Source: a phage. Taken from it: 64,000 nucleotides of DNA. Below are positions 2,953-60,809 of the stretch, piece by piece. Both the position numbers and the translations under genes were made by a program. A model generated the notes under the pieces. The model searched no databases, was not told the origin of the DNA, and worked only from the letters and a program-made list of their open reading frames with translations. The DNA is taken from the sequence record PZ154897.1; one strand, given 5' to 3'. The stretch's first letter is position 1. The number at the start of each line of letters is the position of its first letter.

Positions 2953-3189
2953 TTATTTACCTATCACAGTTTTAATATGAGTTGTTCCACGTTCTTTAAG
3001 AGTGGAAAGCAACTTTTGGCATTTTTCTAAATCAGATTTCCAACTATACGGTCTATCAATACAAACCCATTCTGACTTATAATACTGCTTCCATTTAGAG
3101 AAAAAATACTTCTTATACTCTACAGCAAATGAAATGTTCTCGTTGGAATAAGAACTAATTGCTGTGAGTTGTACCAAACGAAATTTCAT
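2953..3189 (-). CDS. hypothetical protein (78 aa; 31.2 position)
   Basis: ORF between 31 and cd. Confidence 0.45.
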   Translation of the reverse strand: MKFRLVQLTAISSYSNENISFAVEYKKYFFSKWKQYYKSEWVCIDRPYSWKSDLEKCQKLLSTLKERGTTHIKTVIGK

Positions 3190-3770
3190 TATTCACCACA
3201 GAATTCGTTGATATTTTCCCAGTTTAACTTATTCAAGTTTTTCTTAGGAACATTAAACACTTCAATACCCGCATTTCGCAGAATATCATCCCAGCCAGGT
3301 TTATTTTTATCGTATGTTTCGCAATAAACCAGCTTTTTAATACCAGATTGAGCTATCGCTTTTGCACAATCTGGGCAAGGAGAAAGTGTTACATACATAG
3401 TAGCACCTTCAATTGAAGAACCATTTCGCGCAGCAAACAAAATCGCATTTAGTTCAGCATGAATTTCATTTTTAGACGACCACTCAGAGTGAGCACTACG
3501 ATGTTCTTTCGCCAAGACAAAACGATCAGTTGAACCAAACGATACACATTCGGGCTTATGACCTTGAATGATAGTGTGTTTAGGCTTATTCAGCAACCAA
3601 CCTTGCTCGGCAGCATAATCACAACAATTCACACCACCTGCCGGAGAACCGTTATATCCAGTAGAAATAATACGCCCATTCTTTTCAATTACTGCTCCTA
3701 CCTTCCAGGAGCAACATTTTGATTCTTGTGATACTAAATATGCAATTTGAAGTACTGTACTCGCTTTCAT
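3189..3770 (-). CDS. cd: dCMP deaminase (193 aa)
   Basis: cytidine/dCMP deaminase zinc motifs HAELNAI and PCPDCAKAI; same length as T4 Cd. Confidence 0.95.
   Translation of the reverse strand: MKASTVLQIAYLVSQESKCCSWKVGAVIEKNGRIISTGYNGSPAGGVNCCDYAAEQGWLLNKPKHTIIQGHKPECVSFGSTDRFVLAKEHRSAHSEWSSKNEIHAELNAILFAARNGSSIEGATMYVTLSPCPDCAKAIAQSGIKKLVYCETYDKNKPGWDDILRNAGIEVFNVPKKNLNKLNWENINEFCGE

Positions 3771-5589: not shown

Positions 5590-5590
<1 letters not shown>
5393..5590 (-). CDS. hypothetical protein (65 aa)
   Basis: ORF in array. Confidence 0.4.
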
Positions 5591-6802
<1,212 letters not shown>

Positions 6803-6806
<4 letters not shown>

Positions 6807-8237: not shown

Positions 8238-9825
<1,588 letters not shown>

Positions 9826-9852: not shown

Positions 9853-11031
9853 TTAAAAGTATTTTTTAAAACTCATCATAACTTTATCATCAACATCATT
9901 ATCAATCTGTGCAACAAGGTAAGATGACAGTTCTACTTCTTGTGGCGCGGATTGAACATTATCAGAATTAAGATATTCACGAATCCAAGGATATGGGTGT
10001 TTAACCGGAGCATCGGTAATTGGGCATGGAAGACCACACTGTTTCATACGAGATACAGTTAAGTAATCAATAAAGCTCCACATGCTATTTGTATTTAATC
10101 CAGGAACATCACCATCTTTAAATAAATGAACTGCCCAGTCTTTTTCTTGACGGTTAACTTCCATGAAAATATCAACTGCTTCTTGTTCACACTCTTGAGC
10201 AATTTTAACCCATTCATCACCATCAGTTCCAAGCTGAAGTTGACGAATAATATATTGAGTGCCTTTAAGGTGAAGCTGCTCATCACGAGCAATGAACTTC
10301 ATAATCTTGGCATTACCTTCCATGATTTCCATGTTCTTATGGAAGTTAAATGTACACGCGAAAGATACGTAAAAACGAATAGCTTCCAGGGCGTTGATTA
10401 CATGAAGGCAAAGATAAAGAGATTTCATTAGTGCTCGTTTAGCTTCGGCTTCTTGTTTAATAGCTCGATTTAAACGAAAATCAGCATCAGGAGATTCTTT
10501 GGCTAGTTCTACAAATTCTTTAGCATTTTCCCATTCACGGGTCTTCTTAAGAACATCATCGTAATAGCGACCAATGGACTCAGCGCGTTTCATAATATCT
10601 TCATCTAATACAATCTCATCAAATACCTTTGACGGATCAGTATAAAGATTTCGCATGATATGGGTATATGAACGACTATGAATAGTTTCACTAAAAGTCC
10701 ATGTAGCAACCCATGTATCAAGACTTGGGTCTGAAATTAACGACATAAGTACAGCAGACGGTGCACGACCCTGAATGCTATCTAGAAGTGATTGATACTT
10801 CAGGTTATTAGTAAAAATATCTTGCTGATATTGAGGAAGCTTGTTAAATTGTGCAGCATCCATCATCAAGTTTACTTCTTCAGGACGCCAGAAAAATGAC
10901 AATTGCTTTTCGGTTAAATCTTCAAAAACTTTATGGCGTTGAATATCATAACGCGCAATACCAAGACCTGAACCGAAGAACATAGGTTCTTTTAAAACAT
11001 CAACTGGATTTGTATTAAAAACTGTAGACAT
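9853..11031 (-). CDS. nrdB: ribonucleotide reductase small subunit NrdB, uninterrupted (392 aa from ATG 11031)
   Basis: begins MSTVFNTNPVDVL; contiguous full-length ORF, no intron. Confidence 0.95.
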   Translation of the reverse strand: MSTVFNTNPVDVLKEPMFFGSGLGIARYDIQRHKVFEDLTEKQLSFFWRPEEVNLMMDAAQFNKLPQYQQDIFTNNLKYQSLLDSIQGRAPSAVLMSLISDPSLDTWVATWTFSETIHSRSYTHIMRNLYTDPSKVFDEIVLDEDIMKRAESIGRYYDDVLKKTREWENAKEFVELAKESPDADFRLNRAIKQEAEAKRALMKSLYLCLHVINALEAIRFYVSFACTFNFHKNMEIMEGNAKIMKFIARDEQLHLKGTQYIIRQLQLGTDGDEWVKIAQECEQEAVDIFMEVNRQEKDWAVHLFKDGDVPGLNTNSMWSFIDYLTVSRMKQCGLPCPITDAPVKHPYPWIREYLNSDNVQSAPQEVELSSYLVAQIDNDVDDKVMMSFKKYF

Positions 11032-11762
11032 TAATTTTTCCTCTTTAAAATTCTGCCGTGTTTCCAACCTGGCGGAATAATATCATCTTTACCTATAAGC
11101 GTGCATTCACTTCCATTATTAATCCATTTCTTACCGCGGATTCCTTTATAATCTCTTGGTTTTATTTTGTCAAACTTTGCATCAAGTTGATATGACCATC
11201 TAAATCCATAAGCATATTGAAATTTACCCTCGGCACAATATTTGATATTTGATCCGTTTCCATTAACTGACCGGGACGCTGCCGCAATAGAGTGAAAGGT
11301 TTCTATGAAATCCCCGTCTAATGAGAATTTATGTATTTCTATAGATGGGCATGCATATCTATTCACGTTTGATACATGCTGTTTAGTTTCGTTTTTATGG
11401 TGCTTGCCTAACATTCCTTTAGGATGAGGATTATTTTTCCAATATTTCTTAAAGAACTCAGAATTAGCTTTAGCAAATAATTTTCTGTGTAAGCTGTACA
11501 ATCTGTTATTAATTCTATTGCCAGCTTTATCTGTTGCCATTAACGTTAACGCAGAGGCAAGCCCAAAATGGCCTTCATTTATCTTACATAGTAGTAGATG
11601 AGCTATAAAATGTTCTCTGGCTGTTAATTCAACTAAATTTTCCTTATCATCAGAACCTCCCATACATCTAGGGATTATATGATGTGTCTCTTTATATTCT
11701 GATAAAGATTCCCGAGCCTGAGCTCGGGAAATTAGGTCGTTATAGATTTTTTGATAATTCAT
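11031..11762 (-). CDS. mobE: HNH homing endonuclease, MobE-like (243 aa)
   Basis: HNH motif HHIIPRCMGGSDDKENLVELTAREHFIAH; located between nrdA and nrdB as T4 mobE; stop/start overlap with both neighbours. Confidence 0.8.
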   Translation of the reverse strand: MNYQKIYNDLISRAQARESLSEYKETHHIIPRCMGGSDDKENLVELTAREHFIAHLLLCKINEGHFGLASALTLMATDKAGNRINNRLYSLHRKLFAKANSEFFKKYWKNNPHPKGMLGKHHKNETKQHVSNVNRYACPSIEIHKFSLDGDFIETFHSIAAASRSVNGNGSNIKYCAEGKFQYAYGFRWSYQLDAKFDKIKPRDYKGIRGKKWINNGSECTLIGKDDIIPPGWKHGRILKRKN

Positions 11763-14896: not shown

Positions 14897-15158
14897 CATT
14901 ATGTTCAGATAAGGTCGTTAATCTTATCCCGGAATTATATCCAGCTGCATGTCGCCATGCAGTTCAGACTATATCTTCAACTTGTTAAAGCAAGTTGTCT
15001 ATCGTTTCGAGTCACTTGACCCTACTCCCTAAAGGGATAGTCGTTAGGCATTTATGTAGAACCAAAGTCCTACAATTTAGCACGGGATTGTCTACTAGAG
15101 AGGTTCCCCGTTTAGATAGATTACAAGTATAAGTCACCTTATACTCAGGCCTCAATTA
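14897..15158 (-). ncRNA. group I self-splicing intron in td, 262 nt, no internal ORF
   Basis: starts UAAUUGAGGCCUGAGUAUAAGGUG after exon-1 ...CUUGGGU, ends ...AUCUGAACAUAAUG (terminal G); core matches T4 td intron as recalled, with P6 closed by a short loop instead of the I-TevI ORF. Confidence 0.85.
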
Positions 15159-15706
15159 ACCCAAGAAAACATCTACAGAACGTTGATACCACTGCAAATC
15201 CAAATAGCCATTACGCACATTAAACTGATAGAACATATGACAAGGCGGTAATGCCATATATTTAAGTTCAGCTGGATTCCACGCCGACACAATTTGACGC
15301 CTATCATTCGGCAGTTTTTTAATACGATCAATAACTTCTACAATTTGGTCTACACCGCCAAAATCACGCCACTGTTTTCCATAAATTGGACCAAGTTCAC
15401 CACTATGATATCCTAAATCTTTTGCTTGATTTTCGTAATTTTCATCCCAGACTGTTTTGCCTTGAATTAATGAATCATGCTGAATTAATCGTAAATCATT
15501 TACGTTAGTACTTCCTGACAAAAACCAAAGGAGCTCAGCAATACAAGCTTTCCAGGCGAGCTTCTTAGTCGTTACTGCAGGAAAACCTTTAGTTAAATCC
15601 CAGCGTAATTTAGTACCGAACAGAGCAATTGTTCCTGTGCCTGTTCGATCATCAGTTTCATAACCATTTTCCAGGATATCTTTAATTAAAAATTGGTATT
15701 GTTTCA

Positions 15707-34519: not shown

Positions 34520-34669
34520 TTACTGCATGACTGTGATAACTGTCATAATAACACGTTGAATTCCGAATGCAAGAAGACCTCCTGCTACGGCTTGAACAAC
34601 ACCTAAACCCGCCAGTAAAATACTACCGGATACTAATGCAGCGCTTGTAATACCTATGAATGGACTCAT
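34520..34669 (-). CDS. small hydrophobic membrane protein (49 aa)
   Basis: ATG overlaps gene 52 stop (ATGA); hydrophobic throughout. Confidence 0.4.
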   Translation of the reverse strand: MSPFIGITSAALVSGSILLAGLGVVQAVAGGLLAFGIQRVIMTVITVMQ

Positions 34670-35994
34670 TTGATTTCCTCTAAATCTTTGGTGTATTCTG
34701 TAACTACATCAGTAGTTTTCCAATATTCGTTTTCTTCTTTTTTAGCTTTAGCTTCTTCAGCAAGTTTCTTTGCTTCGTCAGAAGTCATATGAAAAATGTT
34801 CATTCCAACTAGTTTATCAACATAAGAAGAATACATATCAATTTTAGAAAGTTCTTCGGTCAGTTCTTTGCGAGTTTTACCTTGTACAACAATTTCACCT
34901 GAAATTACTTTCTTAATGAAATGTGCCTTAGCAAAAGCTAAACGAAATGCTGATTCAGTTTCTTTGATTTTGTTATCAATTCGTTTTTGGACATAAGTTT
35001 TACGAACTTCAACGAAGTCTTTAATTAAATCAACTACGTTATCGTAAACTTGCAGCTTTCCTTTCTCATTAATAACGGTAATATTCTGGGAACGACGCTC
35101 AATCAACCCGAAGTCTTTCATAATTTTTGCATGGCGTTCTTCTTCGTTATCACTCAAAGAGTATTCTTTACGGATTTTAACTTTGAAGCCAAAGCCATGC
35201 TCACCACAAGCATCATCCCATGTAATGAAGCCTTTATCTTCAAGTGGGTCTAAGATTTTACTCACATAAGTTTCACGATCATACTTATACGGAATCTCAG
35301 TGATATTCATTTGAGTTCGTGAAGTAAACTTGTACGTTCCACGAATTTCATATTGACCGTCAATTTCAACGACTTCACCACGAAATTCTGGGAATTCTAC
35401 CTTCGGTTTAGTTACTTTCTTTCCTTGAAGAGCTTGTAGTACAGCTTTCTTGACAGAAGAAACACTATGAGGAAGAATGTAAGTTGCATAACCAGTTGCA
35501 ATACCGGAAACACCATTAAGAAGAACAGTAGGAATAATAGGCAAATAGAAAGCAGGCGGAATGTGTTCTTTATCTTGATGTACCGGAGCATATTCAGTAT
35601 CTTTATATACGTTATAGAAATTTTTACTTACGCGAGCAAAAATATAACGACTTGCCGCTGCTTTTTGAACGGTACGAGAACCAAAGTTTCCTTGACCGTC
35701 TAACAGAGGAAAGTTATTATTCCAAGTGTTAGCCATCAAAGCCCCCGCATCTTGTGCAGAGTTTTCACCATGATGATATCCAAGGTCTGCTACACCACCT
35801 GCAATAGAAGCAAGTTTGTGAAACTTATCTTTATTTCCTCGCGCCAAATCAAGAGCTCGAGCAATAACAAATCGTTGGACTGGCTTAAATCCATCAATCA
35901 TATTTGGAATAGCACGATTTTCAACCGTGTACATAGCATAAGCCAGTGCTTCATTATCAATGATACTTTTTAAATCGCGATTATTCAGTTGCAT
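34666..35994 (-). CDS. 52: DNA topoisomerase II medium subunit gp52 (442 aa)
   Basis: GyrA-like breakage-reunion domain; same length as T4 gp52. Confidence 0.95.
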   Translation of the reverse strand: MQLNNRDLKSIIDNEALAYAMYTVENRAIPNMIDGFKPVQRFVIARALDLARGNKDKFHKLASIAGGVADLGYHHGENSAQDAGALMANTWNNNFPLLDGQGNFGSRTVQKAAASRYIFARVSKNFYNVYKDTEYAPVHQDKEHIPPAFYLPIIPTVLLNGVSGIATGYATYILPHSVSSVKKAVLQALQGKKVTKPKVEFPEFRGEVVEIDGQYEIRGTYKFTSRTQMNITEIPYKYDRETYVSKILDPLEDKGFITWDDACGEHGFGFKVKIRKEYSLSDNEEERHAKIMKDFGLIERRSQNITVINEKGKLQVYDNVVDLIKDFVEVRKTYVQKRIDNKIKETESAFRLAFAKAHFIKKVISGEIVVQGKTRKELTEELSKIDMYSSYVDKLVGMNIFHMTSDEAKKLAEEAKAKKEENEYWKTTDVVTEYTKDLEEIK

Positions 35995-35998
35995 AAAT

Positions 35999-36139
35999 TT
36001 ACCATACTAGTGAATGTAGTGCCATAATAACATCAGAAATGAAAAGCACGACTTGAATTAATCCGAACATTACTCCATAATATAGTGCTATCAATAAAAT
36101 AGCAAGGGCTACCGAGTAGCCCAAGATTTTCTTAATCAT
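35999..36139 (-). CDS. small hydrophobic protein (46 aa)
   Basis: short ORF overlapping next small ORF. Confidence 0.3.
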   Translation of the reverse strand: MIKKILGYSVALAILLIALYYGVMFGLIQVVLFISDVIMALHSLVW

Positions 36140-36287
36140 TAGATAACAACGCAAATGTTAAATATGCACACATACCCTGGGCTAAAGCTTGTGAAAACAC
36201 ACTGCTAGCATCGATACAGATAGTTAAAACACATGCTACTATCCAACAAATAAATGAAATAACTCCTAATAGTTTTGCGATATTCAT
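36132..36287 (-). CDS. small membrane protein (51 aa), Ac-like by size and position
   Basis: 51 aa, GAGGAAA SD; position between 52 and stp. Confidence 0.4.
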   Translation of the reverse strand: MNIAKLLGVISFICWIVACVLTICIDASSVFSQALAQGMCAYLTFALLSND

Positions 36288-36294
36288 ATTTTCC

Positions 36295-36375
36295 TCACTG
36301 GCGTCCGAAGACGCCTTTAGTTTTAAGATTGTTACGATAGAACTGCATCACATGTTCATTATGGAAATTACTCAT
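36295..36375 (-). CDS. stp: Stp peptide (26 aa)
   Basis: [26 protein letters not shown]; ATG overlaps ndd stop; contains C(UUCG)G hairpin. Confidence 0.8.
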
Positions 36376-36830
36376 TAATATGCCTGCAAAACAAATTTAA
36401 AGTTATCAGCCAACATACGGTTCATTTCTTCAAGCGTTTGATACTCAGAATGATGATTACGAGTAAACGCTAAAGCTAACTGACCTTTTCCAAATCCCGT
36501 CGTCAGAGGTTTCATCTTAGAAGCAGGTAGATAAAATACTGTGTATGGAACATTATTATTTGCAATAGTACGCGCAAGCTGAGATCGACGCTGGCGAATA
36601 TGACTTAGAACTGCACTGAATCCTTGCTTAGAACGCTGATTACCTACATAAAATCGTGCAGATACACATGGACTATCAAATGGACCACCAAATTTGCTCA
36701 CTAAAAAGTAAAATCCAGGGTTAGACAAAATGTCTTTATGCGGAGTTCCAAAAACCCATTCACCGCCCTTGATTGTACCAATAACAGTTGCGCCTGCATT
36801 ATTCAAATCAGTAACAGTCATATATTTCAT
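36375..36830 (-). CDS. ndd: nucleoid disruption protein Ndd (151 aa), positional call
   Basis: 151 aa, directly upstream of stp as in T4. Confidence 0.6.
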
Positions 36831-37220: not shown

Positions 37221-37439
37221 TTATTTTACACCATTCCAAATTGTTTCAACCACAGATTTCAAACCATTTTGGTGAATATCCATTCCGACAACCGCCATCA
37301 AATAGATTCCAACCACAACTGAACCCAAGGCGAAAATCAGCATGAAAATGAATAAAGCTGGAAAAATATTATCGAAAAACCATTCCATAAATGTAAAAGC
37401 ACTGCGTTTACGCTTCATATTTTCCTCACATAAATCCAA
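37221..37439 (-). CDS. hypothetical membrane protein (72 aa)
   Basis: two predicted TM helices. Confidence 0.4.
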   Translation of the reverse strand: MDLCEENMKRKRSAFTFMEWFFDNIFPALFIFMLIFALGSVVVGIYLMAVVGMDIHQNGLKSVVETIWNGVK

Positions 37440-38958: not shown

Positions 38959-38972
38959 AATTTTCCTTAGTT

Positions 38973-38988
38973 AAGGGCCGAAGCCCTT
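38973..38988 (-). other. C(UUCG)G hairpin at rIIB stop
   Basis: AAGGGC-UUCG-GCCCUU. Confidence 0.5.
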
Positions 38989-39925
38989 ATTTAAATTGTT
39001 CAGTAACGTCTTCAACTACTTCGTATTGGCAGGTACGCATTTTAGCATCGTTGTAATCAATTGGAATTGATACTACATCGCGAGGATGTACTTTAACTTT
39101 TACAACTCGGCTGGTTGAACTGCCAAAGTGACGAATATAAGATTTAGAACACACATGCAGACCATGAGAACAAGTTTGTGTATCATCGTCATTCACACGA
39201 GTACGTGGCATTTTAACTACTTTACCCGGACTGTTATCAAAGGTGTTTGAGTGACAGTCAAAGTAATTGCTACGAACTACTTTCCAAGCATAGAAGTAAC
39301 CATCTTCTGTAATTTCAATATCGTTTGCTACCAAGAAATCAAAGAGTCGAGATACCGCTTTTTGGCTTGGGTTTTCCAACAGATTTTCCAAGAACGGAAA
39401 ATAAAATTCAAAGTTTTCGCCTTTTTCCATCGAGTCAAGAATACGATCAACCAAACCAGACCGCAATTCAATATTTTGATAGAACAGGCTTCCACCTTCA
39501 ATTCGAACATCGCCGGAAATATATTTTTCAACAGCGCGACGAACATTAATTTTTTGTGCCGCTTCTTCCAATTTATCTGCAACAAGCAGATTAAGAATTT
39601 CCTGGAAGTTTGAATGAGTATTAGGAGTTGCGTTATAAGTTACACCGTCAACAGTAATTGAAATGAATTTTTTAGATGCATTCCAAATAATGTCAGATTT
39701 AGCAACTGGAGCAATAACTGCATCGCTATTAACTTTAACTGTAATATCACCGCTAATAGTAACTTTAGGGCGTTTAGCTTCTTCAGCATTTTTCAAAACA
39801 CGACGGATTGTGTCAACCGATACATCCTTCCAATAAGCCAATTCCTGTTGGGTGTAATTACCGCTTGAATACAGTTTAACAATTTCAGCTTGTTCGTTTT
39901 TGGTCAGGCATTTAATATTGTACAT
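38987..39925 (-). CDS. rIIB: rIIB protein (312 aa)
   Basis: 312 aa, adjacent to rIIA. Confidence 0.85.
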   Translation of the reverse strand: MYNIKCLTKNEQAEIVKLYSSGNYTQQELAYWKDVSVDTIRRVLKNAEEAKRPKVTISGDITVKVNSDAVIAPVAKSDIIWNASKKFISITVDGVTYNATPNTHSNFQEILNLLVADKLEEAAQKINVRRAVEKYISGDVRIEGGSLFYQNIELRSGLVDRILDSMEKGENFEFYFPFLENLLENPSQKAVSRLFDFLVANDIEITEDGYFYAWKVVRSNYFDCHSNTFDNSPGKVVKMPRTRVNDDDTQTCSHGLHVCSKSYIRHFGSSTSRVVKVKVHPRDVVSIPIDYNDAKMRTCQYEVVEDVTEQFK

Positions 39926-60446: not shown

Positions 60447-60809
60447 TTAAAAGAATTTAAATTTTTTCTTTGACCTTTTATTAAATGCATCTTGTAGTTG
60501 CATTGTAATACATTTTTCTACATGAGGAGCTAACTCAGCTTTTCTTTCTTGGTCAAGAACAGCAAAGTCCATTACAACCTTTCCATCAACCCAATCCAGT
60601 TTAGTTACATACACTATATGTGTAGAACCATCTTCTAGTTTAATGACAATCTCCTGGATAACATTTTCCATGGCAGATTTAATTATCTTAAGAGATTCAT
60701 TAAAAAGACGTTCTTTTCTTTCTTCTTCCCCCTCCGAAGAGGGGGATTCATCGATAATTTCTAGATCTAAATCTAAATCATCTTTATTCATTAAATTCTT
60801 CCATATCAC
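60447..60809 (-). CDS. hypothetical acidic protein (120 aa; gene 40 position)
   Basis: position between uvsX and 41; start uncertain. Confidence 0.4.
   Translation of the reverse strand: MIWKNLMNKDDLDLDLEIIDESPSSEGEEERKERLFNESLKIIKSAMENVIQEIVIKLEDGSTHIVYVTKLDWVDGKVVMDFAVLDQERKAELAPHVEKCITMQLQDAFNKRSKKKFKFF

Follow-up and report, generated by a model that had tools for sequence, protein, structure and literature searches.

The 64,000-nucleotide stretch of phage DNA analysed here (the window; record PZ154897.1) carries on its minus strand a 26-codon reading frame with a C(UUCG)G hairpin embedded in it. The locus raises the question of whether this frame is an authentic stp gene and whether the hairpin is a side effect of the peptide or an element in its own right. 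The window belongs to a Tequatrovirus whose nearest relative is phage Aplg8 (94.6% identity over 24 kb), and the gene order ndd-stp-ac-52.1-52 is that of T4 (NC_000866). The gene for the nucleoid disruption protein, ndd (36375..36830, minus strand), whose product is identical to that of T4 at 145 of 151 residues, ends in a stop codon that overlaps the start of stp (UAAUG). The stp gene itself (36295..36375, minus strand) consists of an ATG start, 26 amino acid codons in all and a stop, the last overlapping the Shine-Dalgarno sequence of ac within a UGAGGAAAAUAUG block (36285..36297, minus strand) that leads into the ac AUG. The acridine resistance gene ac (36132..36287, minus strand) encodes a 51-amino-acid membrane protein (50/51 identical to T4), and the end of ndd together with stp and ac aligns with T4 over 281 nt at 99% identity. 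Gene 52.1 (35999..36139, minus strand; 46 amino acids) and gene 52 (34666-35994) complete the order. The opening codons of 52.1, a short distance ahead of gene 52, contain a second stable hairpin (36106-36122, minus strand; GGGCUAC-UCG-GUAGCCC, -10.2 kcal/mol), which is followed by UUGCUAUUUU, bears the label of putative terminator in phage G50, and looks like a sense-strand terminator because of its U-rich tail. Elsewhere in the window, nrdB (9853-11067) is one unbroken ORF with neither group I intron nor I-TevIII, unlike its T4 counterpart, while the td group I intron is present (14945-15168; Rfam RF00028, 76 bits). This intron is the sole Rfam match in the window, no family being found over the stp locus, and no tRNA genes were found in the window.

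The sequence-only reading had identified the peptide as T4 Stp, and this is fully borne out by alignment: all 26 residues are identical to those of T4 Stp (NP_049878; NC_000866 165505-165585), and the 81 nt of DNA differ from T4 at two positions, both synonymous (AAT/AAC and CAT/CAC). Stp scores 75.3 bits over positions 1-26 of 26 of Pfam PF08133 (Nuclease_act, 'Anticodon nuclease activator family'), for which the gathering score of 25 bits served as cut-off, and it also matches phrog_6763. That reading had named divergence at the residues needed for PrrC activation as what would speak against it. The alignment contains zero amino acid differences, and the N-terminal 18 residues, residues 4-14 included, carry no substitutions. 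In Stp, the N-terminal 18 residues are the critical ones, and suppressor (loss-of-function) mutations are concentrated at residues 4-14 (PMC3014915). With its place downstream of ndd, stp has an early-gene position in a T4-type genome. The copies in T4 and in the window have in common the 26-amino-acid sequence, their placement between ndd and ac, a start that overlaps the ndd stop codon, and the hairpin with its downstream Shine-Dalgarno sequence; they differ by the two synonymous nucleotides and reside in different Tequatrovirus phages. No solved structure containing Stp was found in the PDB. The gene often goes unannotated, and in GenBank many of the nearest relatives show no CDS here or have the hairpin labelled as a terminator.

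The link between Stp, PrrC and the tRNA repair enzymes Pnk and Rnl1, which had been put forward as established T4 biology, is indeed documented: Stp inhibits type Ic restriction (EcoprrI, EcoR124I) and so unmasks the tRNA-Lys anticodon nuclease PrrC, after which the ends of the cut tRNA are healed by PseT/Pnk and sealed by RnlA/Rnl1 (PMC3014915, PMC12409349, PMC12707154). The statement that Stp triggers PrrC stands with one refinement, namely that the primary role of Stp is inhibition of the type Ic enzyme, activation of PrrC being the response of the host. By its identity with T4 Stp, the peptide of the window would likewise be a type Ic inhibitor and an activator of latent PrrC in prr+ cells. 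Both repair genes lie about 30 kb from stp in the window, at the coordinates previously assigned to them. The polynucleotide 5'-kinase/3'-phosphatase gene pseT (5590..6495, minus strand) encodes 301 amino acids, 288 of them (96%) identical to T4, with the Pfam domains AAA_33 at 5-148 and HAD_PNKP at 159-301. It retains the GCPGSGKS P-loop, D35, R38, R126, the phosphatase motif DVDGT, R176, R213 and D277/D278, the catalytic residues of the literature on T4 Pnk. The RNA ligase 1 gene (gene 63; 8238..9362, minus strand), here named rnlA after the usage of the T4 reference record, encodes 374 amino acids, 369 (99%) identical to T4, with the Pfam domains RNA_lig_T4_1 at 52-246 and T4_Rnl1_C at 253-374, and retains K99 (in LTKEDGS), E159, E227, K240 and K242. 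The earlier description of the module as intact holds at the level of sequence, to which it is confined, the checked residues of Stp, PseT and Rnl1 being unchanged. PseT also shows a local peculiarity: residues 174-177, beside the conserved R176, read VDRS in the window and NGRG in T4, and nowhere are differences denser in this protein, which is otherwise 96% identical. The ORF directly upstream of pseT (6495-6806, minus strand) encodes 103 amino acids (phrog_2364) versus 75 for T4 pseT.1, and its stop overlaps the pseT start (TGATG).

Several siphophage genera have Stp-like peptides with the pattern MS[NS][FWH]HNEH[VI]MQ[FWL][YHW]R, all of which exceed the gathering score of PF08133. Such loci were found in K1ind2, U136B, STGO-35-1, ZL19, XT34, GJL01 and Sf11 (loci L040-L046) and in many viral and metagenome contigs; of 97 metagenome matches to the HNEHVMQ pattern, 33 are Stp-like and 64 are unrelated chance matches. 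The siphophage peptides (from Tlsvirus U136B, Kagunavirus K1ind2, Cedarrivervirus Sf11 and others) share the N-terminal motif with T4 Stp, but their C-termini either diverge or spell KGVFGK in other codons, none of these siphophage loci has the hairpin, and the genomic context is unrelated. The K1ind2 peptide is identical to T4 Stp at 24 of 25 residues, with many codons synonymously different. In U136B, a phosphatase-only HAD_PNKP protein is encoded about 570 nt downstream of the Stp-like gene.

The hairpin of the window, GGCGUC-UUCG-GACGCC (36300..36315, minus strand, sense RNA), occupies the codons of G21, V22, F23, G24 and R25 and the first base of Q26. It had been placed inside the stp coding sequence, which is where it lies, and assigned to the residues KGVFGR, of which GVFGR can be kept and K20 falls outside the stem. 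The stem has 6 bp; folded alone, the hairpin has a free energy of -10.0 kcal/mol and makes up 97% of the ensemble (z = -4.3), and it is present in both the MFE and the centroid structure of a 131-nt context.

The hairpin might be an accidental by-product of the residues GVFGR, with no function of its own. The peptide motif is kept for its own sake, since GVFG plus a basic residue is conserved in the protein even in phages that have no hairpin, and compensatory double changes, which would argue for the stem, are absent from the alleles compared. The codons tell against such an accident. Of the 3072 synonymous ways to encode KGVFGRQ, none is more stable than the one observed, which shares the top rank, and with codons weighted by their usage in the 46 long ORFs of the window, equal stability has a probability of 3.4e-4 (0.034% of weighted encodings). 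The codons of the stem are rare ones (relative frequencies GGC 17%, GTC 7.5%, TTC 24%, CGC 12%). In the Kagunavirus and Braunvirinae homologues KGVFGK is retained but coded GGR GTG TTT GGA AAA, with a structure of 0 kcal/mol, so that peptide and hairpin are separable and the C-terminal motif is conserved on its own account. The hairpin also fits a recurrent motif of T4 that is biased to the sense strand and found in the same downstream context. Codon choice, the hairpin-less homologues, the T2-type alleles and the variation among hairpin-bearing alleles together argue that the hairpin is not a mere product of the peptide, and a by-product is quite improbable. The hairpin itself is under selection, being the product of an extreme choice of rare codons superimposed on an independently conserved peptide C-terminus.

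Comparison of alleles is consistent with an RNA structure but not decisive. Ten distinct hairpin-bearing alleles, drawn from viral and metagenome contigs, were compared, and all 60 of their 60 pair cells are paired. Stem changes occur at three positions and are exclusively from G-C to G-U or U-G; nine alleles have the loop UUCG, and the tenth has UUUG. The flanking codons vary in the amino acid encoded (TK, LT, II or IT at 19-20; Q, P, L or stop at 26). As the G-U wobbles would be mismatches on the antisense strand, they favour a structure in the sense-strand RNA. All the stem changes observed are, however, either synonymous transitions or located inside a variable codon, compensatory double changes are not seen among the ten alleles, and a shuffle control was uninformative, so that the comparison taken alone speaks only weakly for a structure. 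T2-type alleles, with NFGILGFKK or NFGILGSKNS as their C-terminus, do without the hairpin, which indicates that it is not essential. The downstream Shine-Dalgarno sequence of the T2-type alleles (loci L047, phage T2, and L049, phage TOPO13, at about 660-740) reads UUGAGGAGAA and includes GGAG, the RegB cleavage motif, which does not occur in the T4-type block GAGGAAAA.

The stp hairpin is not alone in the window. CTTCGG is observed 29 times versus 13 expected, and nine stemmed C(UUCG)G hairpins lie on the transcribed strand, in accordance with a published T4-wide bias that confines stemmed CTTCGG to the sense strand (PMC7165471). Four of these hairpins have a U-tract behind them and are terminator-like. 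Another three (537-556, 36300-36315 and 38972-38989) are followed after 2-3 nt by GAGGAAAAUA or AAGGAAAAUU and then AUG; the one at 38972-38989 lies at the rIIB/denB.1 boundary and contains the rIIB stop codon within its stem. C(UUCG)G hairpins of T4 were reportedly described by Tuerk et al. (1988, PNAS 85:1364; cited through PMC7165471 and PMC8948821). The stp copy resembles the T4 hairpins in its C-UUCG-G tetraloop, its G+C-rich stem, its sense-strand location, and its position in an early transcription unit beside a cistron boundary. T4 hairpins are mostly intercistronic, whereas the stp copy is wholly coding and must also spell GVFGR. It is an ordinary T4 cistron-boundary hairpin that is read through by the upstream ORF. 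A second wholly coding C(UUCG)G hairpin is found at 60727-60746 (minus strand; UCCCCCUC-UUCG-GAGGGGGA, -15.9 kcal/mol) in the ORF 60447-60791, where it codes for ESPSSEGE near the N-terminus of a gene 40-like head vertex assembly chaperone (phrog_999).

Several functions were weighed for the hairpin. The annotation of phage G50, in which the homologous 16 nt are called 'putative transcriptional terminator, -10.30', implies a sense-strand intrinsic terminator or attenuator that would stop or diminish ndd-stp transcription ahead of ac and gene 52, and the four UUCG hairpins of the window with U-tracts do resemble real terminators. The tail at stp, by contrast, reads AGUGAGGAAAAUAUG and has no U-tract, and a consensus scan did not call this hairpin on the minus strand. 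The hairpin moreover lies inside a translated ORF, and a better candidate with a U-rich tail is found 180 nt downstream in gene 52.1. With no U-tract, sense-strand intrinsic termination is unlikely and was rejected. Termination of antisense transcription entering the early region from the plus strand has the formal advantage that there the hairpin (-9.1 kcal/mol), GGCGTCCGAAGACGCC followed by TTTAGTTTTA, was called terminator-like by the scan. This T-rich tail is no more than the codons for LKTK read on the opposite strand, the KLT alleles have lost it and kept the hairpin (AGTTAATTTCAG), the G-U wobbles of the relatives become A-C mismatches on the plus strand, and the nearest plus-strand late-promoter motif is 5.3 kb upstream. 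A T-tract that is not conserved and wobble pairs that are strand-specific led to the rejection of antisense termination, which is very improbable indeed. The third proposal draws on spacing: the end of the stem precedes GAGG by 3 nt, a distance invariant in all alleles, and two other UUCG hairpins of the window are placed alike relative to a ribosome-binding site, as would be expected if the hairpin insulated the ac ribosome-binding site and kept its Shine-Dalgarno sequence and AUG unpaired. The native ac site nevertheless has an opening energy that is average among all 1536 synonymous recodings of GVFGRQ (44-58th weighted percentile for the ac Shine-Dalgarno and AUG under three window definitions), which lends insulation no support, and we regard it as improbable.

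A different kind of explanation places the selected property in the DNA. The stp cassette, 97 nt that begin at the stp ATG, take in the hairpin and Shine-Dalgarno sequence and reach to the following ATG, shows 96% identity between the window and locus L037, in which ndd is only 71% and gene 52 only 77% identical. In the relatives, at least six different small membrane-protein genes are found downstream of the same hairpin-Shine-Dalgarno block, one and the same downstream gene can follow different stp alleles, and upstream of stp there is either ndd or an inserted 57-amino-acid ORF. The stp gene is missing altogether from many T4-like loci whose Ndd is more distant, which marks it as an accessory cassette in a hyperplastic region. 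The hairpin-Shine-Dalgarno block coincides with recombination junctions at which stp alleles and downstream small membrane-protein genes are reassorted. It might accordingly be kept mainly as a junction for DNA recombination, a promoter-less analogue of the PeSL cassettes that shuffles small genes behind stp. Homology breaks at the block, at least six downstream genes and several upstream contexts adjoin it, with downstream genes reassorting among stp alleles, and TGAGGAAAATATG-like blocks occur 11 times in the window versus 3.8 expected (up to 2 mismatches); in T4-type phages the nearby ndd.4/.5 region is a documented case of shuffling by PeSL cassettes (PMC4122927). Conservation of a block may, however, lead to recombination there instead of resulting from it, and loci without stp share the Shine-Dalgarno block but not the hairpin (L014). 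The likeness to PeSL cassettes (promoter-early plus stem-loop; PMC2839356, PMC4122927) consists in a short conserved stem-loop block bordering reshuffled small ORFs in a hyperplastic early region, and the difference is that the stem-loop at stp is part of a gene and has no early promoter attached. The scan found no promoter-like site beside 36300-36315 on the minus strand, the nearest such sites on that strand being at 37249-37220 upstream and at 36105-36077 downstream, and as PeSL cassettes are defined by their promoter the stp block was not filed among them. A mainly DNA-level role is a minor contender, though one with a real chance.

A second exact copy of TGAGGAAAATATG is found at 37416-37428 (minus strand) in the ndd.x region. 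Dhakavirus-type loci (L010 at about 3170-3330, L013, and L050 of phage NC-G at 560-680) contain two stp copies each, one of them intact and of WH type and the other of FY type with no ATG. The microhomology TATTA-TG-AGTAAT connects the FY-type copy with a 5' fragment of gene 52.1, in frame in NC-G; in this remnant the N-terminal codons are substituted and the hairpin and Shine-Dalgarno sequence are unchanged.

It is conceivable, as a speculative minority reading, that the 30-nt block of hairpin and Shine-Dalgarno sequence is a promoter-less mobile junction element, at once an RNA structure and a recombination handle. Such an element would fit both the near-identical stp cassette between flanking genes that are only 70-77% identical and the survival of an intact hairpin-Shine-Dalgarno block in stp remnants that lack a start codon. 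If so, the block as RNA would determine how stable the ndd-stp and ac-52 mRNA segments are relative to each other, and as a handle it would let the gene for an anti-restriction peptide and the small membrane-protein genes swap between T4-like genera.

The reading preferred here is that the locus is an authentic stp gene in a Tequatrovirus, carrying a selected hairpin of the T4 class with a presumed post-transcriptional role, and as a whole it is very probably right. In the early polycistronic message ndd-stp-ac-52.1-52, the stp hairpin would act on the mRNA after transcription, either as a barrier to exonucleolytic decay or, alternatively, as a boundary between the ndd-stp and ac-52.1-52 segments. 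This post-transcriptional role is preferred by elimination of the other functions and by analogy with T4 gene 32 mRNA, in which a CUUCGG hairpin is reported as stabilising (as cited in PMC8948821). The specific mechanism, barrier or segment boundary, is put forward tentatively and with somewhat less than even confidence. Ribosomes translating stp must melt the hairpin, which counts against even this best explanation, and a search of the literature for 3'-end or Term-seq maps of T4 found nothing usable.

The observation of an stp gene with its repair enzymes and the interpretation given to it are correct, and both are established T4 biology rather than a new kind of system. A T4-like phage here carries the classical set of Stp, polynucleotide kinase and RNA ligase 1 that stands behind the textbook arms race with EcoprrI-PrrC, and this has little importance beyond annotation. 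The additions to that picture are modest: the hairpin does not simply follow from the peptide but is a selected layer engineered through codon choice; the C-terminal motif of GVFG and a basic residue is conserved whether or not the hairpin is present, though reported to be only moderately important; and Stp-like peptides are spread over several siphophage genera.
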